Below, piece by piece: positions 2,733-51,137 of a DNA stretch of 64,000 bases (position 1 is its first letter; every line of letters begins with the position of its first letter). The DNA is from Verrucomicrobiota bacterium (GTDB lineage: Bacteria; Verrucomicrobiota; Verrucomicrobiia; Limisphaerales; UBA9464): the NCBI GenBank assembly GCA_947471985.1, contig CANIZL010000003.1:747-64746 (forward strand). Direction: 5' to 3'. Both the position numbers and the translations under genes were made by a program. The notes under the pieces were generated by a model. The model saw only the letters and a program-made list of their open reading frames with translations. It searched no databases and was not told where the DNA came from.

Positions 2733-3884
2733 TCAGAGGGTCGCCGCCAAATTCCGGGTCAATTTTTCCAACCACAGCGCAGCCTCCGCCTTCGCTTCGG
2801 TGGCCGGTGCCAGGTCCGGTACGATGGCCCGGGTGGACGTAAAGAGTTGCTGTTCCGGCGAGAGGTCGGGCACCGCTTCCACCACACCGGCCAATCCGTG
2901 ACAAGGCTTGCCCGCCGCCCGCGCCAAGGCAGCAATACGCCCCGTGCCCTTGCCCATCAGCGTTTGTCGATCGAGTCCGCCTTCACCGGTTAGCACCAAA
3001 TCCGCCCGGGCAATCTTTGCCTCGAGCCGGGCCAGATCGGCGAAGATCTCAAAGCCCGATTCCAATCGCCCGCCCAAAAACGCCCGCAGGGCGAACCCCA
3101 GTCCGCCCGCCGCACCGCTGCCGGCATCAACGGCATAGTCATGGCCGAGCTGCTCGCGCAGCACCTGGGCGAGACGTCCCAAGGCCGCGTCCGCCAGCGG
3201 TTGATCTGCTGCCGTCAGGCCCTTCTGCGGTCCGTAAATGGCCGAACAACCGGAGGGGCCGAGCAGGGGATTGCTGACATCACACGCTCCAATCACTTCA
3301 CCGGACCACGTCTGCAGGGGCGGCACCCAGGTGTGCAGGCGGGTGAGTTCGGTCCAACGGGTGATCTCCCGTCTGTCCGCGTCCAGGAAACGGCCGCCCA
3401 GAGCGCGGGCGAGACCGAAGCCCGCATCGTTGGTAGCACTGCCTCCCAACCCGATGATGAGTCGCTGGGCTCCATACTGCACGGCCGCGGCGATGGTTTC
3501 CCCCAAGCCCCGGGTATCGAGGTCGAACGGATGAAATTGCCCGGTCGGGAGCAACGCCAAACCAATGCTTTGGGCGGATTCAATGATGGCCGTGCGCGTG
3601 GTTGGATCCCATGCCCAACCCGCAATGCGGGGACGGTGCGCGGCGTCCATCGTCTCCACCGTGCGACTCTCGGCTTGCAACAGTTCCGCCAGCACGAGAC
3701 TGAATCCGTCCCCGCCGTCGCTCATGGGCAACAACTCCAGACTGTCGTCGGGGTACACCTGTCTCCAGCCCCGCGCCATCGCTTCGGCGGCGGCGCGGGC
3801 GGTCAGTGTCCCCTTGAACTTGTCGGGGACGACCAAGAGGTGGCGCGGTGCCCGGGAGGGACGACGCGAGGTGTCGGGGCTCAC
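2733..3884 (-). CDS. Glycerate kinase
   Basis: 383-aa ORF with a GTG start at 3884. N-terminal LLVVPDKFKGTLTA, then SDGGDGF and GGSATNDAG blocks typical of the glycerate kinase family. Confidence 0.85.
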   Translation of the reverse strand: MSPDTSRRPSRAPRHLLVVPDKFKGTLTARAAAEAMARGWRQVYPDDSLELLPMSDGGDGFSLVLAELLQAESRTVETMDAAHRPRIAGWAWDPTTRTAIIESAQSIGLALLPTGQFHPFDLDTRGLGETIAAAVQYGAQRLIIGLGGSATNDAGFGLARALGGRFLDADRREITRWTELTRLHTWVPPLQTWSGEVIGACDVSNPLLGPSGCSAIYGPQKGLTAADQPLADAALGRLAQVLREQLGHDYAVDAGSGAAGGLGFALRAFLGGRLESGFEIFADLARLEAKIARADLVLTGEGGLDRQTLMGKGTGRIAALARAAGKPCHGLAGVVEAVPDLSPEQQLFTSTRAIVPDLAPATEAKAEAALWLEKLTRNLAATL

Positions 3885-3895
3885 CGCTGGGAGGA

Positions 3896-4792
3896 TCAGC
3901 GCTTGGCCGGGCGCTTGGCCGGGCGCTTGGCAGCCGGGGCCTTCAGGCGTTTGAACTCCTTGGTCAGATTCGTGAGTGAAGCCTCGACGCCCATGCGCTC
4001 CAGCGAACTGGCCCCGACGAAGCCCACCGCGTCCGTGCCTTTGAGCACGCGTTCGGCATCGGCCGGCGTATTGATTGGTCCGCCGTGGCAGAGGAAGAAC
4101 AGATCCTTCCGGACGCGTGATGCGGCATCGATAATCTCCTGCGTCCGCTTCAAGGTGAAGTCCCAGCTGACGACCGATTTCGTGACGCCGATGGAACCGC
4201 CGACGGTGGTGCCCACGTGGGCGATGATGGCGTCAGCGCCGGCCTTGGCCATCTCCACGGCCTCCTCGGGCGAGCCGACGTAGACGATGGAGAACAGGTC
4301 CATGCGTCGGGCCAGGGCGATCATTTCGTACTCCTTCTTCACGCTCATGCCGGTTTCCTCCAGCACGCCGCGGAAATGGCCGTCGACGATGGTGTGGGTC
4401 GGGAAATTGTTCACGCCGGAGAAGCCCATCTCCTTGACCTGGCCGAGCCAGTGCCACATGCGGCGGCGGGGATCGGTGGCGTGCACGCCGCAGATCACCG
4501 GTACCTCTTCCACGACGGGCAGCACTTCGTACTCGCCGATCTCCATGGCGATCGCATTGGCGTCGCCGTAGGCCATCATGCCGCAGGTGGAGCCGTGGCC
4601 CATCATGCGAAAACGGCCGGAATTATAAATGATGATCAGGTCCGCTCCGCCCTTTTCAATGAACTTGGCGGAGATGCCGGTGCCGGCTCCGGCGGCAATG
4701 ATGGCGTCGCCGCGTTTGAGGGTATCGCGCAGGCGGGCGCAGACTTCCTTGCGGGTGTACGGGTTTCCTTTTCCGGTCCAGGGATTCGGCAT
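3896..4792 (-). CDS. Phosphoenolpyruvate hydrolase-like TIM-barrel protein (PEP_hydrolase/UPF0261-partner family)
   Basis: 298-aa ORF. IIAAGAGTGISAKFIEKGGADLIIIYNSGRFRM...GVNNFPT...CHGGPI matches the family I recognise. The C-terminal tail is AKRPAKRPAKR. Confidence 0.75.
   Translation of the reverse strand: MPNPWTGKGNPYTRKEVCARLRDTLKRGDAIIAAGAGTGISAKFIEKGGADLIIIYNSGRFRMMGHGSTCGMMAYGDANAIAMEIGEYEVLPVVEEVPVICGVHATDPRRRMWHWLGQVKEMGFSGVNNFPTHTIVDGHFRGVLEETGMSVKKEYEMIALARRMDLFSIVYVGSPEEAVEMAKAGADAIIAHVGTTVGGSIGVTKSVVSWDFTLKRTQEIIDAASRVRKDLFFLCHGGPINTPADAERVLKGTDAVGFVGASSLERMGVEASLTNLTKEFKRLKAPAAKRPAKRPAKR
3899..3931. repeat. 12-bp tandem repeat (GCGCTTGGCCGG x2 plus a partial third copy) at the 3' end of the CDS
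   Basis: GCGCTTGGCCGG at 3899-3910 and 3911-3922, then GCGCTTGGC at 3923-3931. On the minus strand this encodes (AKRP)n immediately before the stop codon. Confidence 0.9.
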
Positions 4793-42556: not shown

Positions 42557-43660
42557 ATGAAGCACTCTCTGCCAACCTTGTTGGGCGCACTGGCTTGTGC
42601 CCTGCCGATCACTTTTCAATCCAGTGTCTCCGCCCAAGGCTGCGTAGCCGTCCGGGGCGGCGGCATGTGTTCGCTGCATCTCGGGGAGCCGGGCGCGGAC
42701 GTCGAGGAGAATCCCTGGCTCGCCAGTGTCTCCTACCGGTACATCCATTCCTTCCGGCACTTCGTCGGCGATGTAGAACAGTTGCAGCGCGCCGCTGCGG
42801 CCAACCAGGTCATCAATCATTCGCACTTCATTGATTTCGGCGCCCAGTACCGGATCAACTCCCATTGGGACGTGGCGGTGACGCTCCCGTTCGTGACCTC
42901 CACGCGCTCCCAGGTGGTCGGCACGCCGGGTACCCGCTTCGAAACCAGCTCCAGTGGCATCGGCGATGCGCGGCTGACCGGGTATTACTGGATTTTCGAT
43001 CCCAAAAAGGAACCCAAGGGCAACATTCAAATCGGTCTGGGTTTGAAGGCGCCGACCGGTGACCACAACGTGCAGGACACCTTCCTGACCGCGAATGGAA
43101 CCACGACGGTGCGCGCGGTGGATCAGTCGATTCAGCCGGGTGACGGCGGTTGGGGCACGTCCATCGAGTTGAATGCCTTCCGGGAGCTTATGCCCCGCAC
43201 GGTGGCGTTTCTTCAGGCGTCCTACCTGCTGAACCCGGAGGATACCAACGGCACCGTCACCGGCCGGTTCCGCAACGATCCCAAGACGGCGGGTTATTAT
43301 GAAAATCTAATGTCGATCCCCGACCAATACTTCGTCCGGGGCGGCCTTGGCTACAATCTGGTGCCGAAGTGGGGTCTGACGGTCAGTCTCGCAGGCCGCT
43401 TGGAAGGTGTGCCGGTGAATGATTTGTTGGGTGCCAGCGATGGCTTCCGCCGTCCCGGCTTCGGGGTCAGCATTGATCCGGGCATCCAGATCGCCAAAGG
43501 CCGATTCACGTTTAACGTCAACGTGCCGTTCGCCTTGTATCGTAATCGCGAACGGAGTGTCGCCGACCAGTTGGCGACGGCCGCCAAGGGCTCGGATGTC
43601 CACGGCGACGCGGCGTTCGCCGACTACGTCGTAACGGCGGCGATTGGCATCCGTTTCTAA
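42557..43660 (+). CDS. Outer-membrane beta-barrel transporter-like protein (MetA/phenol-degradation-type inference)
   Basis: 367 aa. Signal peptide MKHSLPTLLGALACALPITFQSSVSAQG, alternating beta-strand pattern, and a C-terminal ...AAIGIRF aromatic terminus. Confidence 0.65.
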   Translation: MKHSLPTLLGALACALPITFQSSVSAQGCVAVRGGGMCSLHLGEPGADVEENPWLASVSYRYIHSFRHFVGDVEQLQRAAAANQVINHSHFIDFGAQYRINSHWDVAVTLPFVTSTRSQVVGTPGTRFETSSSGIGDARLTGYYWIFDPKKEPKGNIQIGLGLKAPTGDHNVQDTFLTANGTTTVRAVDQSIQPGDGGWGTSIELNAFRELMPRTVAFLQASYLLNPEDTNGTVTGRFRNDPKTAGYYENLMSIPDQYFVRGGLGYNLVPKWGLTVSLAGRLEGVPVNDLLGASDGFRRPGFGVSIDPGIQIAKGRFTFNVNVPFALYRNRERSVADQLATAAKGSDVHGDAAFADYVVTAAIGIRF

Positions 43661-43935: not shown

Positions 43936-44313
43936 ATGCACTCACCCGAAGTTCCTCCGCCCGTGCCGCCGCCGGTTCCTGGTGTGGGCGGCGTGTTGTT
44001 GATGTGTCTGGTCCCCGCGGCGACCCTGTTGATCGCCGCGCTTCTGGGATACAATCCCACTCGGACCGTGCCCGTGCCGGTCACGGTGTTGCTTGCCGTT
44101 TCCTTCCTGGCGCCGGCGTGGGCGGCGTGGGATTTGCATCGGCGTCGTCGAGCCATCGGGAAGAATATGTTACCCAACGCGTGGATCGCCGCGGGCGCCG
44201 GAGCGCTGGCCGGAGTGCTCTTCTGTATGGCGGCGTGCATCCTCGCCGTTGTGGTTTTCGTGTTGGTGATGTTCGGCGTCTGCGTTTTGAATGGTGGTCG
44301 ACTGGGCGGCTGA
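43936..44313 (+). CDS. Hypothetical polytopic membrane protein with a Pro-rich N-terminus
   Basis: 125 aa. PEVPPPVPPPVPG is followed by about four hydrophobic helices. It ends 36 nt before the radical SAM gene on the same strand. Confidence 0.5.
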   Translation: MHSPEVPPPVPPPVPGVGGVLLMCLVPAATLLIAALLGYNPTRTVPVPVTVLLAVSFLAPAWAAWDLHRRRRAIGKNMLPNAWIAAGAGALAGVLFCMAACILAVVVFVLVMFGVCVLNGGRLGG

Positions 44314-44349
44314 AACGCCTTTTCCAGCGAACCACCTCCCGTCTTTCCC

Positions 44350-45750
44350 ATGACTTCCGAATCTGCGATCGCTCTACGCCCGGCGCGTGAGTTGCTGAAA
44401 CGTACCACCACGCGCTGCCCGGTTTGCCGTGAACCGGTGCCCGGTGAGGTCTGGCGCGAAGGACGGCATCCGGCCCGGGTGATCCTGCGGCGAACCTGTC
44501 CCACCCACGGGCCGGCCGAGGCCGTACTCGCCAGCGATGCCCGTTTTTACTGGCTGGCGCAGGGAGATCGCGCGTCGGGGGGCTGTTGCGGGGGCGCGTG
44601 CCACGCCGCCGAGGGACCGGCTACCGGCACACTGGGGCGCAATGCCGGAGTGGTCTTCGCCGAAGCCCCCGCCACGTCGAGCGTCCGTTGCGAAACGTTG
44701 TCCACGTGTCTGGCCCTGATCGAGATCGTCCACTCCTGCAATCTCGCCTGCCCGACCTGTTATGCCGACTCGCCGATCGGCGCTGGCGCCAAGGTGGATG
44801 CCGTTCCGTTGAGCGATCTCCAACGACGCATCGAGGGCGTCATTGAGCGGAAAGGACGGATAGAAATCCTGCAATTGTCCGGCGGTGAGCCGACCCTGCA
44901 TCCGCAGTTTTTTGAACTGTTGAACTGGGCGCAGGCGCACGAGAAGATCGATTTTACCTTGGTGAACACCAATGGCGTGCGGCTGGCGCAGGATCCGGAG
45001 TTTGCCCGCCAATTTGGCGAGGCGGCGGCCCGCAAAGGCGTACAATTGTACCTCCAATACGACGGCCCCCAAGCCGCGGGGCAGCGGGAATTGCGGGGCG
45101 CGGATCTGCGGGTCCTGCGGGAGCGCACCTTGGAGGTCTGTGGGCGGATCGGTCTCCCAGTCACCCTCGCGATGACGGTCACTGCGGACAATCTGGCTCA
45201 CGTCGGGGACGCCATCGCCTTTGGTCTGGCGCAACCGCACGTCCACGGCCTGACCTTTCAGCCCCGCTTCCTAAGTGGACGCACTCCGACCCGCGACGCG
45301 GACGCCGGGAATGCCCCCCGTTTAAACACCGCCGACATCCTGCTCGCGGCAGTGGCGCAGAGTGAAGGACGATTGCGCTTCGAGGACTTCACACCGTTGC
45401 CGTGTGGGGATCCCAATTGCGCCACGATTGGGTATCTCTTGCGCCTGGGCGAACAGGTCCGCTCGGTGAGTGAATTCGTCGACTTCGCCCAATTGCAGGG
45501 CTTCCTGCACGACAAGATCAACTATCGACTGGAGGATCTGGTGCAATGTGGCTGCGAAACCGAGCCATTGGGACACCTCTTGAAAGGACTCGAATTGCAG
45601 CCCGGCATCGCGTTTCGCTTGATGGTCAAACCCTTCATGGATGCCTGGACCTGGGATCAGGATCGCATCGACCGCTGTTGCACGCATGTGATCCGTCCCG
45701 ACGGCCGTCTGGACTCCTTCTGCCACTACTACAGCGGATTTGCTCCGTAA
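44350..45750 (+). CDS. Radical SAM protein with an N-terminal zinc-ribbon (COG1964-like architecture)
   Basis: 466 aa. CPVCREPV...CPTHG zinc-ribbon, then IEIVHSCNLACPTCYADS (CX3CX2C), LSGGEPTL, and a C-terminal CGDPNC...CGC...CCTHV Cys-rich region. Confidence 0.85.
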   Translation: MTSESAIALRPARELLKRTTTRCPVCREPVPGEVWREGRHPARVILRRTCPTHGPAEAVLASDARFYWLAQGDRASGGCCGGACHAAEGPATGTLGRNAGVVFAEAPATSSVRCETLSTCLALIEIVHSCNLACPTCYADSPIGAGAKVDAVPLSDLQRRIEGVIERKGRIEILQLSGGEPTLHPQFFELLNWAQAHEKIDFTLVNTNGVRLAQDPEFARQFGEAAARKGVQLYLQYDGPQAAGQRELRGADLRVLRERTLEVCGRIGLPVTLAMTVTADNLAHVGDAIAFGLAQPHVHGLTFQPRFLSGRTPTRDADAGNAPRLNTADILLAAVAQSEGRLRFEDFTPLPCGDPNCATIGYLLRLGEQVRSVSEFVDFAQLQGFLHDKINYRLEDLVQCGCETEPLGHLLKGLELQPGIAFRLMVKPFMDAWTWDQDRIDRCCTHVIRPDGRLDSFCHYYSGFAP

Positions 45751-45756
45751 ACCGGT

Positions 45757-46542
45757 GTGATTCCTGGAACCTGGCCCTTGAACACGCTCCTCGCCGCGGT
45801 AGATCGGATTCCGCTCAATGACGGTGCGGTGCGGCCCCCGTTTTATGGAGCGCTGCTGCTGCTCGGACTCGCGGGCAGTCTCTGGTGGTGGATGCGGCTG
45901 GCGCGACGGGATGAGCGACTGTTGCTGCTCTGGGCGATCGCGCTCGTCAGTGCATTTCTGGGGGGGAAACTGGGTTATCTGCTGGCGGAAGGTTGGCTCG
46001 ACTACGGTCAGCCGGATGTCTGGCAGCGGTGGCTCACGGGCAAAACCATCGTGGGCGCGCTGCTTGGTGGCTATGCCGGGGTCGAATGGGGCAAGCGCCT
46101 GCTGCGCTATCGAACTGTCACGGGCGACTGGTTTGCGTTCGTGGTTCCGGCGGGAATTGCCCTGGGACGGGTGGGATGCTGGTTGCAGGGGTGCTGTCTC
46201 GGCCAGGTTTGCGCCACCCCCCACTGGTGGACAGTTGCGGATACCCACGGACTTCCGCGCTGGCCGGCGGTCCCGTTGGAGTTGGGTTTCAATGTCGCGG
46301 CGATCCTGCTCTTTGCGGTCTTACGCTGGAGCCATCGGCTGCCAGGACAGCATTTTCACCTCTATTTAATGGCCTACGGGCTGTTCCGCTTTGTGCATGA
46401 GAGCTGGCGCGATACCCCCCGGATCCTCGGGCCCTTGAGTGGGTATGCTGTGATGTCCCTCGGACTCATAATCCTGGGCGGCGTCCGATTTGTTCAGCGT
46501 CAACGGGCCTTGGCGGGGGAGGCCAGTGGCGGCAGCCGGTGA
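45757..46542 (+). CDS. Prolipoprotein diacylglyceryl transferase (Lgt)-family membrane protein, divergent
   Basis: 261 aa, with a GTG start 6 nt after the radical SAM stop. Polytopic membrane protein. GKLGYLL, VGALLGGY, the GRVGCWLQGCCLG loop and HLYLMAYGLFRFVHESWR resemble the Lgt family. Confidence 0.7.
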   Translation: MIPGTWPLNTLLAAVDRIPLNDGAVRPPFYGALLLLGLAGSLWWWMRLARRDERLLLLWAIALVSAFLGGKLGYLLAEGWLDYGQPDVWQRWLTGKTIVGALLGGYAGVEWGKRLLRYRTVTGDWFAFVVPAGIALGRVGCWLQGCCLGQVCATPHWWTVADTHGLPRWPAVPLELGFNVAAILLFAVLRWSHRLPGQHFHLYLMAYGLFRFVHESWRDTPRILGPLSGYAVMSLGLIILGGVRFVQRQRALAGEASGGSR

Positions 46543-46774: not shown

Positions 46775-47686
46775 ATGAGTTTCGCCCAACGTTTGTTCAA
46801 GCCCGAGTATTGGTTCCGGCCGCGGCAGGTTTATCACCGCCTCACCCGTCGTGGTCCGCGTCCGGCCGATGCCGATGTCATCACCCCGTGGGGATTGCCC
46901 ATGCGGGTGCATCCCAGCGAGGACATGGGCATGGTGATCTGGCATTTGGGCGTCATTGATTTGGTGGTGTGCGAGGCGTGCTGGCGGTTGCTGGATCCGG
47001 GCGAGACCGCCTTGGATGTGGGCGCCAACATCGGTCAGATGACCGGGCTTCTGGCTCGTCGAACGGGACCGACGGGTGAAGTCTGGAGTTTTGAACCGCA
47101 TCCCGAAGTGCGCGCCGAACTCGAACGGCATGTGGCCGCCTGGCGCAAGACGGATCTGCCCCTCGGTCACGTCCGGGTTCATGGCGTCGCCTTGAGCAAC
47201 GCGTCCGGAGCCGCTGCCCTATTCGAACCGCGCACGTTTTCCGGGAACCGAGGTACCGCCAGTCTGGAATTGGTCTCCACCGAATCCGGAGGCGCCAACG
47301 ATGCCGGGGGACGGTCCTTCACTGTACCGACCCAGGCCTTCGATGAAGTGTTTCCCAAGGATCGTCGCGTGGGTGTCCTCAAGATCGATGTCGAAGGACA
47401 TGAGCCGCAGGTTTTCGCCGGCGCGCTGCGCACCCTGCGGGATCGGCGGATCCGGGATATTGTTTTCGAGGAACACCAGAGTCTGCCCAGTCCGGCGTCG
47501 AAGCTGCTGACGGACGCCGGTTATACCCTCTTTTCCCTCGAGCAGGCCTTTTGGGGCCCGCGCATCCATTCGCCCACGGAAGCGATCAATCGTCCCCACT
47601 GGCTGCCGCCGAACTACCTGGCGACCTTGGATCCTGCCCGGGCCATTGCGAAGTTCCGTCCGGGCGGCTGGCAGGTGCTGCGCTGA
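46775..47686 (+). CDS. FkbM-family methyltransferase
   Basis: 303 aa. ALDVGANIGQMTG, VWSFEPHPE, GNRGTASL and LKIDVEGHEPQVFAGA. Confidence 0.8.
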   Translation: MSFAQRLFKPEYWFRPRQVYHRLTRRGPRPADADVITPWGLPMRVHPSEDMGMVIWHLGVIDLVVCEACWRLLDPGETALDVGANIGQMTGLLARRTGPTGEVWSFEPHPEVRAELERHVAAWRKTDLPLGHVRVHGVALSNASGAAALFEPRTFSGNRGTASLELVSTESGGANDAGGRSFTVPTQAFDEVFPKDRRVGVLKIDVEGHEPQVFAGALRTLRDRRIRDIVFEEHQSLPSPASKLLTDAGYTLFSLEQAFWGPRIHSPTEAINRPHWLPPNYLATLDPARAIAKFRPGGWQVLR

Positions 47687-47747
47687 TAATGGGGGCGGCG
47701 TTTGGGATTTGCCGCGATCCGTAGCGGCCCGATTCTGCGGGGTCATC

Positions 47748-50700
47748 ATGTTTCCCCGTCTAACGCTGCTGATCGTCCTCCTGCTGGTGGGTCCATGGAG
47801 TTCCCCACTCCGTGCCGACGTGTCTTTCCGGACCAACGCCACCGTGTTGTTCTACGGCAATTCGCTGATGGAACGATTGGCGGAACACGGCGAATTGGAG
47901 GCTTGGGTGCAGCTGGCACATCCGCAGCAGCACCTGCATTTCCGCAGTCTGGCGTGGACCGGCGACGAAATCGGCCATCAACTGCGCGCCGAGGGCTATG
48001 CCGATTACATGAAGGGCTTGCTGGCCGAGTGGCCGGCGCAGGTGGTCCTGATGGGGTTCGGCATGAATGAGTCGTTCGCGGGCGCCGCGGGCTTGGCCGA
48101 TTTCCGCGCGCAACTGGCGACCTATCTGGAGCAACTCAGCCGGCGACATCCGCAGGCGACCTTGGTGCTGCTCGCGCCGACGGCGGTGGAATTGGGGGGA
48201 CAAGTGCGGGACACGTTGGGACGCAATCGGGATCTCGCCGCGTATGCCCAGGTCATGGAGGAAGCCGCCCGGTCGCGCGGGGTGTTGTTCGTGGACCTGT
48301 TTTCCGCCACCCGCGACGCCATGGCGAACACGGTGGAGCGGCTCACGGTGAACGGGATGCATTTGAACGCCGCGGGGAATCGGGTCGTGGTGCAGCTCAT
48401 CGCTCGGGCGTTGCTCGGCGACGCGGCTTTCCAACGGATCTCGCCGGCGCGCGTCCTGGAGGTTGCCCCGGCTGCTGCGCGAAAAAATCATTTCGTCGCG
48501 GAGGTGGCGCGCCCAAAGAATGCCGATCTCTACTACGGCGTCCGCAAACGGCCCGAAGAATATGCGGCGGAGATTCCGCGGTATCACCGCATGATCGCCG
48601 CCACCGAGGCCCTCGAGTATGAACTCGCCGCGTCCCCGGATCGCCGGTTCAACAGCACCTCCACGCCCTGGCTGGAACCCCTGCCGCCCGGGGCCGGTCA
48701 CGACGACGGCAAGAGCACGGGCATCATCAAGAGCCCGGCGGAGGCTCTCGCGGAAATGAAGATGGCCGACGGTTATGCCGTGAATCTCTTCGCTTCCGAG
48801 GAACAGTTTCCGGACCTGAAGAATCCTGTGCAGATCGCCTTCGACGCCCGCGGCCGCCTGTGGGCCGTCACCATGCCGTCCTTTCCCCACACGGTCCCGG
48901 GGATGAAGCCCGACGACAAAATCGTCGTGCTCGAAGACACGGATCACGATGGCCGGGCGGACAAATTGACGGTGTTCGCGGACGGACTGGATGCGCTGGA
49001 CGGTGTGGCGTTTCACGAACGCGGGGTGATTGTTTCCGAACAACCGCGGTTGTGGTTGATGCAGGACACCGACGGCGACGGCCGGGCGGATTTCAGGCAG
49101 GAGTTACTCCGGGGCATCGACGTGACGGATTCGCATCACGGGGGAATGATCGCCACCGATCCGCTGGGCCACGTGTGGTTTTGTGACGGAGTGTTTCACC
49201 GGTCCCAAATCGAGACGCCGCAAGGCGTGGTGCGGGCGATTGATGCCACGACTTTCCGCCTGAATCCGCGCACCGGCCGGGTGGATGTGGAATGGCAGAG
49301 CATCACGCCGAATCCGTGGAAGATCACCTTCGATCGTTACGGAAATGTTTTTCAGATGTATGGCGACGGATTGGTCCTGGACGGCTTGCCGCTGACCTGG
49401 ACACCCCTCGGCGTGTATCACCCGTTCGCCTACGCCAAGACGGTGGACTACGGCAAGGGCTCGGCCGCGGCGAGCATTTCGAGTCCCAATTTTCCGCCCG
49501 AATACCAGCAGGGAATGGCCTCCGCTGCGCTCTTGGGACGCTACAGCGTTTCGTTGACGAAATATGATTTCGCCGAAGGCATGGTGCGCGGCTCGGGGCG
49601 GCTCGACATACTGACGTCGCCGAACCCGGCTTTCCGCCCGGCCGATGTGGAATTCGGCATGGATGGCGCGCTGTACGTTTCCGATTTTTGCAGTGCGATC
49701 ATTGGGCACGCGCAGCATCCGATGCGGGATCCGCATTGGGATCACACGCACGGCCGGATTTGGCGCGTGGTCTACTCGGGGCGGCCGGTGGTGAAGACGT
49801 GGCCGCAGATCGAAGGCGCGAGTGTCCCGCAATTGCTCGCGTTGCTCCGCGATTCGCAGGATCTGGTGCGGCACCATACCCGCATTGAATTGCGCCGGCA
49901 CGGAGCGTCGGTGCTGCCCGCGCTGGAGGCCTGGGTGAGTGCGTTGGATTCCGCCCGGCCGGAATCCGAAGCCGCGTTGCTGGAGGCCGTTTACGTGGCG
50001 GAGGGCCTGGGGCAGACGCGTCCCGCCTGGTTGACCCGTTTGGCGCAGTCGCGCGACCCGCTGTATCGCGCCGCGGCCACCCGCTTGATTCGCTATCAGG
50101 CCGATCGCCTGCCGGATGCCACCGAGCGTCTCCAAACAATGGCGATGGATCCGCATCCGCGGGTGCAGATGGAAGTGGTGGACGCGGTGGCGCACCTGCG
50201 GCCGACGCTCCCGGCGGCGGAGCACGCGTTGCACGCACTGACTTCGACCAACGCGGATGTGAAGCACATGATGGCCGATTTGCGGCACGGCACTCGACCG
50301 GCCAAGGGACGCAGCGTTCCCGTGCTGGAGACGGCTCCGGAGACTCGCTTGAACGAATGGCATTGGCTGGGCACCGCGGGTTCCGGATCGGCCACCCGCT
50401 ACCGCGCCGGCGGCCCCAAGGGCGGCACGCCGCCGCCGGGCAGCGGCGTCTATCGCACCTATTTGCAGGCCACGGCGGCGCAGCCCGCGACGCTGGCGGT
50501 GAGGTATAGTTTCCTCGACATCTCGGTGAACGGCGACCAGCTGCTCTCCCACGACTCCCAGTGGAGCAGCGAACAACAGGTGCAATTTGATCTGCGCCCC
50601 GGCTTGAATGTGATCGACGTGGAACTGCGCCGGCTCAACGGCGCCCCGCCGGCGATTTACCTTTATGACCCCGTGGGCCAGCCCCTCGCCAACGTGCGTT

Positions 50701-51137
50701 TGGCGTCCGATGAAGCCAGCCTGCGCGAGCTGTCGACGGCGTGGAATCAGGCGAACGCGCCGCAAGCGGGTACGCTGCGGGTGCAGGCGGGGGCCGGGCT
50801 CCAGTTCATTCCCCGGGAATTGCGCGTGAAGGCCGGCACGCCGGTGCATCTGACCTTCGAAAACCCCGACCTGATGATTCACAACTTCGTACTCGTGGCG
50901 CCGGGTGCGGCCGACGAGGTCGGGGACCTGGCCGACCAGTTGGCGAAGCAGCCGTACGGGTTGTCCCGCCAATACGTGCCGGAGACGCCGAAAATCCTTC
51001 AATCCACCCGGCTGGTGAATCCCAAGGCGAAGGCCCAGCTCGATTTCACGGCGCCCAATGAGCCCGGGCGTTATCCATTTCTCTGTACCTTTCCCGGCCA
51101 TTGGCGCCTTATGAAGGGCACGCTGATCGTTGAGTGA
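47748..51137 (+). CDS. Large secreted multidomain protein: SGNH-like, membrane-bound-dehydrogenase-type propeller, HEAT repeats, C-terminal cupredoxin
   Basis: ATG at 47748 gives the signal [23 protein letters not shown]. Contains [30 protein letters not shown], and HEAT-like [17 protein letters not shown]. The C-terminal type-1 Cu ligand pattern is MIHNF...[16 protein letters not shown]. Confidence 0.8.

Follow-up and report, generated by a model that had tools for sequence, protein, structure and literature searches.

Three adjoining genes in a 64-kb window (the whole stretch of DNA that was analysed, 64,000 nucleotides), encoding a small membrane protein, a radical SAM enzyme and an Lgt-like membrane transferase, are functionally linked, and the module that they form is widely conserved. 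We interpret them as a module dedicated to protein lipidation, with the radical enzyme acting to remodel the lipid. This reading is preferred over its rivals, although its chemistry is inferred and it could as readily prove wrong as right. Lgt lipidation is seen as one universal housekeeping route; if our interpretation is true, there is a second, specialised protein-lipidation route, in which a dedicated, divergent Lgt paralogue serves acceptors encoded with it and is partnered by a radical enzyme. No description of the module was found in the literature searched.

All three genes lie on the forward strand. The small membrane protein (125 aa; 43936..44313, +) was taken from the ORF list and is also called as a gene, the radical SAM enzyme (466 aa; 44350..45750, +) was assigned using Pfam, NCBIfam, and PDB sequence and AlphaFold fold matches, and the Lgt-like membrane transferase (261 aa; 45757..46542, +) was assigned using Pfam LGT and a profile match to 5AZB; for this last ORF an alternative start at 45778 is possible. 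An earlier note, made from the sequence alone, had described three same-strand genes with gaps of 36 and then 6 nt, which held against the ORF list. The three ORFs are considered coding because their third-position GC (0.72–0.75) fits, and the same three genes were called by an independent gene caller on the source contigs. The earlier note had also placed an OMP gene upstream and an FkbM methyltransferase gene downstream. The latter held in Pfam and NCBIfam scans, while the former is plausible only: the start of the upstream 367-aa protein resembles a signal peptide and its last residue is Phe, but family scans found no family match for it. Both genes were considered as parts of the module and rejected, as they are kept only in near-identical contigs; having been overweighted in the earlier note, they are local context only, and neither is conserved with the enzyme pair. 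A promoter scan of the locus returned 0 promoters and a terminator scan gave counts at chance level, and both were uninformative.

The pairing of the two enzymes is conserved across genomes. The radical SAM gene was immediately followed by a same-strand Lgt-like gene in 65 of the 74 species genomes with enough sequence, while 7 of these 74 loci had no Lgt-like gene within 6 kb. In the reverse test, a radical SAM gene was found upstream of the Lgt-like gene at 33/35 metagenome loci. Four distant relatives (loci L168–L171), whose radical SAM proteins are ~38–44% identical to the window protein and whose genomes have 35–46% GC, all have an LGT-family gene that adjoins the radical SAM gene and lies upstream of it. 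Finally, two single polypeptides (P0271 and P0293), one for each Lgt-like motif type, combine LGT, Zn-ribbon and Radical_SAM domains. Lack of conserved adjacency in relatives would have counted against the coupling; instead, the adjacency is conserved in both directions, outlasts changes in gene order and also occurs as fusions. The clade comprises 479 loci in a one-genome-per-species collection.

The radical SAM protein matches the Pfam models Zn_ribbon_HMPTM and Radical_SAM, with the latter spanning residues 124–285, and the motifs previously reported in it (CPVC...CPTHG and CNLACPTCYADS) are present. The four residues of a rubredoxin-like zinc or iron ribbon (C23-x2-C26-x23-C50-x2-H53; 44416..44508, +) are invariant in alignment A1, as is the radical SAM cluster motif (C130-x3-C134-x2-C137; 44737..44760, +). 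The N-terminal auxiliary [4Fe-4S] cluster of GDGT-MAS has three Cys and one His as ligands; here, within an N-terminal region with the pattern GCCGGxxC, C80 is invariant and C84 is nearly invariant in the same alignment; this region was left unaligned by HMMER and has a pLDDT below 50 in the AlphaFold model, which is of moderate quality overall (pLDDT 67). In a sequence search of solved structures, the sole strong match was GDGT-MAS (MJ0619, 7TOL; E = 1.2e-33, in three stretches), which couples lipid tail ends (PMC9433317). Foldseek comparison of the model with 7TOL gave E = 1e-26 and TM-scores of 0.60/0.57, with SkfB as the runner-up (8e-10). The kinship to MJ0619/Tes drawn in the earlier note held, with 7TOL as the sole strong structural match. 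Membership of a non-lipid radical SAM subfamily, which would have weakened a lipid-related reading, was not borne out, as the sole close relative is GDGT-MAS/Tes, a lipid-tail-coupling enzyme.

The protein is a full-length member of the GDGT-MAS/Tes superfamily and belongs to neither of two curated families, Tes and TrsS. It shares with GDGT-MAS/Tes the CX2C...CX2H ribbon (C9X2C12X20C33X2H36 in GDGT-MAS; PMC9433317), a Cys-rich N-terminal region that may hold a cluster, the CX3CX2C core, a C-terminal cluster domain that aligns with that of GDGT-MAS, including RCC...C, and the full length, and GDGT-MAS/Tes is its best match both by sequence and by fold. However, it does not meet the cut-off of the Tes equivalog NF045702 (149.6 bits, against 450), and its nearest relatives fall below as well. 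In addition, K427, an invariant Lys in alignments A1 and A4, stands opposite the labile Met439 ligand of GDGT-MAS in the sequence alignment, the host here is bacterial (Verrucomicrobiota) with ester lipids, and the pairing or fusion of this clade with an Lgt-like enzyme and Cys-motif proteins is unreported for Tes. TrsS (NF045646), reportedly described by Haft & Tolstoy 2025, belongs to the same superfamily and is the best-scoring curated family (201 bits), but its cut-off of 490 bits is not met, 0/10 of the nearest representative relatives reach it, and the radical SAM gene here has no in-frame selenocysteine codon. Mss and the bacterial Tes homologues put forward for brGDGT synthesis are likewise radical SAM enzymes thought to join bacterial lipid tail ends; no Lgt-like or Cys-motif partner is mentioned in the literature that we examined on them, so the present clade may differ in role. 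As for existing labels, homologues are named ‘7,8-dihydro-6-hydroxymethylpterin dimethyltransferase’ in some databases, and some pipelines already label the clade ‘tetraether lipid synthase’. More distant relatives carry a fused AMP-binding domain, of a type known for activating fatty acids.

The 261-aa partner matches Pfam LGT with 95 bits, but scores only 53.5 bits against the lgt equivalog TIGR00544, whose cut-off of 118.9 is not met; the LGT partners at the four distant loci score 34–45 bits. A phmmer search with the protein alone against solved structures found nothing, and a family profile was needed, which matches E. coli Lgt (5AZB) with E = 1e-12. In the profile alignment to 5AZB, R143, R239, Y235, E243 and R246 of E. 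coli Lgt, including its catalytic arginines, correspond to R138, R211, Y207, E215 and R218 here, which are invariant or nearly so in alignment A2, and E202, Y26, G142, G145 and G154 are also conserved in the Lgt-like family. Other residues differ from those of E. coli Lgt. At the position of H103, in the HGGL motif, the family has Leu or Val, within GKT(I/V)(L/V)G, and N149 is also not conserved. Where E. coli Lgt has its signature GRLGNFINGELWG, the protein has GRVGCWLQGCCLG, a replacement of the canonical loop that had been noted before and that held, and both N146 and E151 become Cys. This Cys-rich motif (G137-R138-V-G140-C141-WLQ-G145-C146-C147-L-G149-QV-C152; 46165..46212, +) consists of columns that are invariant in alignment A2, and the first three Cys of the signature GRxGCxxxGCCxG are kept in 146/148 full-length Lgt-like neighbours. 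The AlphaFold model of the protein has a pLDDT of 84, with low confidence at residues 141–170; the four Cys could not be placed, and whether they form a disulfide or a metal site is undecided. In E. coli Lgt, H103 is essential and the E151A/Q variants are inactive. The full catalytic set, the presence of which would have pointed to an ordinary Lgt, is thus lacking here (H103, N146 and E151 are replaced).

These data bear on the simplest rival explanation, namely that a housekeeping lgt happens to sit beside an unrelated radical SAM gene or, as a variant, that the radical SAM protein is the pterin methylase of methanopterin synthesis. In its favor, the Pfam LGT domain is present, and the variant is suggested by the Pfam/JGI names (HMPTM) and by the database names of homologues. 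However, a housekeeping lgt is contradicted by the conservation and residue data, as the adjacency is reciprocal, deeply conserved and also found as fusions, the TIGR00544 score is below the cut-off, and H103 and E151 are missing. For the variant, the pterin methylase assignment of MJ0619 was not reproducible, and MJ0619 has instead been demonstrated to be GDGT-MAS (PMC9433317). We consider this explanation very nearly ruled out. The earlier suggestion that the protein is probably not the housekeeping Lgt is supported by the lost residues and the low TIGR00544 score; no second LGT gene was found within the 64-kb window.

The third component, the 125-aa protein, has a Pro-rich N-terminus, ~3 membrane helices and an RRRR loop ahead of the last helix. 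(The earlier note gave ~4 transmembrane helices; the difference lies in the final hydrophobic segment, which is long and can be read in more than one way.) A lipobox-like F113-G114-V115-C116 (44272..44283, +; alignment A3 and motif statistics) ends the last helix and is followed by a 9-residue tail, VLNGGRLGG. In a six-frame translation of the window, this was the sole ORF with the C-terminal motif. No Pfam or NCBIfam model matches the family to which it belongs, whose hallmark and only common feature is a last helix ending in F-x-G-C or F-G-x-C and then a tail of 2–20 residues. For counting, a motif ORF was defined as a helix, x-[G/A/S]-C and a tail of ≤20 residues, and the ORFs considered were those on the same strand and no more than 2 kb from the enzymes. 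Such ORFs made up 107/819 near the enzymes, as compared to 1/1176, 0/794 and 0/1105 in controls, and a metagenome replicate gave 58/433, with 0/534, 0/434 and 1/598 in controls. No motif ORF was seen at 16/80 loci. At the fusion loci of P0271 and P0293, likewise, no protein with a clear C-terminal F-x-G-C was seen; another conserved membrane protein takes its place, which was rejected as a core part because it was not found at other loci or in the window.

In alignment A3 of 87 family members, the Cys (C116 here) is the sole invariant column, with Phe at position −3 in 54/87 and Gly at position −1 in 74/87. Similarly, the only invariant feature among ~190 neighbouring small proteins is a Cys positioned like that of a lipobox. 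In the consensus, a full helix follows a basic loop and leads into [F>>L][AVLFGI][G>>AS]C or F-G-x-C, with the latter form also found at the four distant loci. Measured against the canonical lipobox ([LVI][ASTVI][GAS]C), the motif is similar but not canonical: it has Phe at −3, the position of its Gly shifts, and the ‘signal’ is a full-length helix that comes after others. Members with a Zn-ribbon mostly have 3 or 1 helices past the ribbon, which would place the Cys outside. At four loci, a 3-helix + F-[L/I]-G-C module is followed by a ~220-aa domain, which is the layout of a lipoprotein signal. As with the acceptors of E. coli Lgt, the Cys of the candidate acceptors is predicted to lie at the outer end of a hydrophobic helix after a basic loop; unlike those, they are encoded next door, with a non-canonical motif, and their Lgt-like enzyme has a radical SAM enzyme as its coupled or fused partner. 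The ‘lipo-invert C-terminal anchoring domain’ (NCBIfam) was tried and rejected, as it gave one weak match (E = 0.26) and did not recur in the 87 small proteins. Overall, the 125-aa protein is a member of a family of probable acceptor substrates, with the acceptor role of the Cys being inferred. The earlier note treated the Pro-rich protein as a neighbour and missed this membership.

A second rival explanation is a ribosomal lipopeptide route, analogous to the DAG-RiPPs, which are short ribosomal peptides with a lipobox Cys that are encoded beside a modifying enzyme (PMC13056109). In this scenario, the radical SAM enzyme would first act in the cytoplasm, on either the C-terminal tail or the F-x-G-C region, while the last helix is still to be inserted; lipidation of the Cys by the Lgt-like enzyme would follow, and signal peptidase II would then free a lipidated peptide of 3–21 residues. 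The arrangement of the small genes is in its favor: several paralogous small genes adjoin the enzymes, and their products combine a conserved ‘leader’ with tails that vary and fall into subfamilies (including ...GG(K/R)MDF(K/R), ...GRIAP and ...SHMQF), and a conserved leader with variable tails is typical of RiPP precursors. DAG-RiPPs also prove that short peptides traverse the lipoprotein pathway (PMC13056109), and both systems have Cys-bearing small ORFs adjoining the gene of a modifying enzyme. Near one distant locus, there is a gene for Lnb_N (DUF4105), the family to which the Bacteroides lipoprotein N-acyltransferase belongs. However, Lnb_N was seen at this one locus only; searches of the other loci and of the window did not find it, and it was rejected as a core part. 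The radical SAM enzyme has as its closest relatives enzymes that act on lipid tails rather than on peptides, and a Pfam scan detected no peptide-recognition domain in it. The tails have no common motif for a single enzyme to recognise, some members bear the ~220-aa domain instead of a tail, and the existence of fusions between radical SAM enzyme and membrane transferase better suits a shared lipid. Nor are the features of DAG-RiPPs (a classical signal peptide, an MNIO enzyme and the housekeeping Lgt/Lsp/Lnt; PMC13056109) met with here: in the module, the Lgt-like enzyme is divergent and dedicated, the ‘leader’ has several helices, and the modifying enzyme is a radical SAM enzyme of lipid type. 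We consider this route unlikely.

A third possibility, a pathway for lipids only, is also doubtful. Here the radical SAM enzyme would couple acyl tails to give membrane-spanning or macrocyclic lipids, along the lines suggested for bacterial Tes homologues and brGDGTs, the Lgt-like enzyme would shift glyceryl or diacylglyceryl groups between lipids, and the small proteins would be accessory or regulatory. It is widely assumed that bacterial Tes homologues produce membrane-spanning lipids (PMC8941075, PMC11868695), the loss of phosphatidylglycerol-selecting residues suggests a different lipid partner for the Lgt-like enzyme, and the fusion of distant radical SAM relatives to an AMP-binding domain is also consistent with this pathway. 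However, it leaves unexplained both the lipobox-like Cys, the sole invariant feature of the small proteins, and the variants with a large domain past the Cys. In addition, every characterised Lgt, to our knowledge, uses a protein Cys as its acceptor.

We therefore return to the protein-lipidation module, whose three parts, coupling and residue patterns are shown. In the mechanism that we propose, the last helix of the small protein would insert from the inside to the outside, leaving the invariant Cys at the outer face of the inner membrane, a position that would mirror that in a lipoprotein signal peptide. The Lgt-like enzyme, predicted to have kept the Lgt transfer centre but not the residues by which the phosphatidylglycerol head group is selected, would transfer a glycerolipid onto this Cys. 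A radical SAM enzyme must be cytoplasmic, and the Tes-like enzyme would act from the cytoplasmic face, docked on the Lgt-like enzyme or, in some organisms, fused to it. Its radical chemistry would be directed at the hydrocarbon tail ends of the lipid handled by the Lgt-like enzyme, either the donor or the attached product, and the expected product would be a tail-modified anchor (e.g., cross-linked, macrocyclic or membrane-spanning). We infer, rather than observe, that the Cys is the acceptor, which lipid is the donor, and how and when the radical step takes place. The undescribed membrane-lipid or lipoprotein modification pathway suggested in the earlier note is supported to this extent, and the pathway itself remains an inference.

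Several points stand against the lipidation module. There are no experimental data. Considering that H103 and E151 are absent, a different chemistry, or no phospholipid donor, is possible. As the Cys is predicted at the outer face and the radical SAM enzyme is cytoplasmic, direct action on the Cys is unlikely, and the target of the enzyme is unproven. The motif of the small proteins is no canonical lipobox, given its Phe at −3, its shifting Gly and a full-length helix with others ahead of it. The equivalent of Met439 is an invariant Lys, and the Cys-rich loop is poorly modelled. Lastly, there are the loci without an Lgt-like gene (7/74) or without a motif ORF (16/80), and the fusion loci without a clear F-x-G-C protein.

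A bolder reading, which we regard as no more than possible, is that the module makes a new protein-lipid conjugate, with the Cys thioether-linked to a glycerolipid whose tails are radically joined. This would cover small membrane proteins, or short peptides cut from them, anchored by a macrocyclic or membrane-spanning lipid. Metagenome surveys count bacterial Tes homologues as possible sources of the branched tetraether lipids that are used in paleoclimate proxies (PMC8941075, PMC11868695). The present clade seems linked to protein lipidation rather than to these lipids, and the reading of such counts would change accordingly; if the bolder reading is true, a large clade of ‘bacterial Tes homologues’ is no marker of brGDGT synthesis. 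The module was found in a cultured Verrucomicrobium as well as in MAGs assigned to Prosthecobacter and Chthoniobacter, and, as it comprises only three genes, it is open to direct experiment.

Three same-strand ORFs make up the module: a 125-aa small membrane protein (43936-44313, + strand), a 466-aa radical SAM protein (44350-45750, +) and a 261-aa Lgt-like protein (45757-46542, +), with gaps of 36 nt and then 6 nt. The earlier note had described this layout and these gaps, which held in the ORF listing, and every sequence motif it quoted was found. All three ORFs have a codon-position GC pattern consistent with coding sequence, and the same genes were called by an independent gene caller on identical metagenome contigs. 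The window is 63% GC, and almost all of its relatives are labelled Verrucomicrobiota. The note's flanking OMP and FkbM genes proved to be a local feature only, as neighbourhood comparison showed no conservation of OMP-like or FkbM genes with the enzyme pair across the compared loci. The 367-aa protein at 42557-43660 starts with a signal-peptide-like segment and has Phe as its last residue. It is conserved in near-identical contigs only, belongs to no Pfam family, and its only match, a weak one, is FapF-like (E = 1.7e-4); it is a possible outer-membrane barrel. A very large protein (47646-51137; 1129 aa in the source gene call, which starts later) combines a GDSL lipase domain, DUF7133 (a PVC-type haem-binding region), HEAT repeats and a C-terminal cupredoxin.

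Four independent lines show that the radical SAM and Lgt-like enzymes are linked. A one-genome-per-species collection held 479 loci with a radical SAM relative; the best 80 were analysed, 74 of which had room downstream, and an Lgt-like gene lay directly downstream on the same strand in 65 of these 74, frequently with a 4-nt overlap. In the reverse test from the Lgt-like protein, which counted metagenome loci with at least 1.5 kb of upstream sequence, a radical SAM gene was upstream in 33/35. Four distant relatives (radical SAM proteins ~38-44% identical to that of the window, genomes of 35-46% GC) all have an LGT-family gene adjoining the radical SAM gene, but upstream of it, so the pairing survives rearrangement. 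Finally, two natural proteins (P0271 and P0293) carry an LGT domain, a zinc ribbon and a radical SAM domain in a single chain, one with a three-Cys and the other with a single-Cys motif. The rival that these observations address, chance adjacency of a radical SAM gene to a housekeeping lgt, is all but excluded. Lgt has seven helices and a periplasmic head according to the E. coli literature, and its C-terminus is reportedly cytoplasmic (Pailler et al, 2012). As the LGT domain is N-terminal in the fusions, this topology would place their radical SAM domain in the cytoplasm.

A multi-helix membrane protein bearing a C-x6-C-x2-C-x7-C motif is conserved in both fusion loci (L172, 4686-6065; L173, 3-806; 39% identity, E = 4e-48); it is fused in L172 to a rhodanese (sulfur-transfer) domain and was not found in the window or Verrucomicrobial loci. 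Other superfamily fusions occur in the distant relatives P0355 (981 aa) and P0372 (688 aa), one joining a Tes-like radical SAM domain to an AMP-binding (acyl-activating) domain and the other joining radical SAM to DUF5714.

Pfam places an HMPTM-type zinc ribbon and a Radical_SAM domain in the 466-aa protein. Its top NCBIfam families are TrsS (201 bits, cut-off 490) and the tetraether synthase Tes (150 bits, cut-off 450), and neither cut-off was reached by any of its 10 nearest representative relatives. By sequence search, the sole strong match to a solved structure was GDGT-MAS, the MJ0619 product (7TOL), in three stretches (ribbon, core and C-terminal cluster domain). When modelled with AlphaFold (moderate quality, pLDDT 67), the protein matched 7TOL at E = 1e-26 (TM-score 0.60), the second-best fold match being weaker by 17 orders of magnitude. 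C23/C26/C50/H53 follow the rubredoxin-like pattern seen in GDGT-MAS, and a CX3CX2C motif plus ten further Cys are conserved among relatives; in contrast, the labile ligand Met439 of GDGT-MAS aligns with an invariant Lys. Considering the sub-cut-off scores, the 7TOL matches and the shared Cys/His patterns, we infer that the protein is a relative of this lipid-tail-coupling enzyme outside the curated Tes family. Two names are given to members of the clade (window 44350-45750 and homologues P0016, P0035 and P0116) by public pipelines, "7,8-dihydro-6-hydroxymethylpterin dimethyltransferase" and "tetraether lipid synthase"; evidence for the clade supports neither, and the first is obsolete.

The 261-aa protein has a Pfam LGT domain and scores 53.5 bits against the lgt equivalog model (cut-off 118.9), while a profile built from 28 relatives matched E. 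coli Lgt at E = 1e-12. By E. coli numbering, the family keeps R143, R239, Y235, E243, R246, E202 and Y26, and changes H103 to Leu/Val, N146 to Cys, N149 to Gln/His and E151 to Cys, yielding an invariant GRxGCxxxGCCxG(xxC) motif. In E. coli Lgt, H103 and E151 are described as essential, E151 being part of a proposed phosphatidylglycerol-selecting filter. Residue conservation thus suggests a retained transfer centre with altered donor recognition. A second, canonical lgt is absent from the 64 kb of the window, the rest of the genome not being covered. Another radical SAM-linked LGT type (L051, 197-940, and the Lgt-like genes of the distant loci L168-L171) has the motif GR(I/V)GCxLxGxxD(A/G)T, with the first Cys only and the canonical RHPTQLYE kept; Cys in place of N146 is the sole feature common to both types. 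One of these loci (L169) encodes a Lnb_N (DUF4105) protein at 3439-4287, two genes upstream of its Lgt-like gene; the Bacteroides lipoprotein N-acyltransferase belongs to the DUF4105 family. Lnb_N was found in no other locus examined.

The neighbour listing revealed that small ORFs beside the enzymes end alike, with a hydrophobic helix, F-x-G-C and a short tail. The motif was defined after this listing and then counted by distance and strand. Near the enzymes on the same strand, it occurred in 107/819 ORFs from genome loci and 58/433 from metagenome loci, vs 1/1176 and 0/534 farther off, 0/794 and 0/434 near on the opposite strand, and 0/1105 and 1/598 farther off on that strand. Of the genome loci, 64/80 contained one or more motif ORFs, frequently two to four in total, which can lie to either side of the radical SAM gene. 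When 87 members were aligned, no column other than the Cys was invariant (Phe at -3 in 54, Gly at -1 in 74); 2-20 residues follow it, most commonly 10. Six-frame translation of the whole window gave a single motif ORF, the 125-aa protein (...VMFGVC-VLNGGRLGG), whose F-G-x-C form is also used in distant loci. About a quarter of these proteins have an N-terminal zinc ribbon; none matched a Pfam or NCBIfam family, and no description was found in the literature searched. Separately, about a quarter of genome loci also carry, upstream of the small proteins, a conserved 4-helix protein of ~135 aa (L020, 4589-5026; L054, 4636-5052; ~17 further loci) that lacks the C-terminal Cys motif and belongs to no Pfam or NCBIfam family.

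A basic loop leads into the last helix (1.8 Lys+Arg in 14 residues vs 0.7 in the tail), and three helices or one follow the ribbon in 22/25 zinc-ribbon members; the Cys is therefore predicted to lie at the outer face, like a lipobox Cys. Four loci encode ~315-325-aa proteins in which the same three-helix and F-[L/I]-G-C module precedes an uncharacterised ~220-aa domain (LDL(T/S)PFY...FDVRG, no Pfam family; L012/L085, 4632-5576; L047, 4245-5189; L049, 7805-8779; L164, 268-1239). Lipoprotein precursors are laid out in this way; from this layout, without experimental data, we argue that attachment or processing takes place at the Cys. Two alternatives remain possible: modification of the peptide itself along a RiPP-like route, by analogy with DAG-RiPPs, or a pathway acting on lipids only, in which the small proteins would serve as accessory subunits. 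A dedicated lipidation module is the best-supported reading, on computational evidence alone and with slightly more doubt than confidence. Under the lipidation reading, the small proteins would be acceptors, the Lgt-like enzyme a transferase whose donor selection has changed, and the radical SAM enzyme would act on lipid tails from the cytoplasmic side; step order and product are inferred. That the two enzymes share a lipid is made plausible by the fusions and by the Lgt cavity, whose floor is hydrophobic and faces the cytoplasm.

Pairing of Tes-like and Lgt-like enzymes was undescribed in the literature searched, a comparison that did not cover TrsS gene context. Several third-party MAG records with a locus of the Verrucomicrobia type (L015, L020, L026, L039, L044, L048, L053 and L060) bear the names Bifidobacterium, Klebsiella, Saccharimonadales or Sulfotelmatobacter in their titles, probably through labelling or binning errors.
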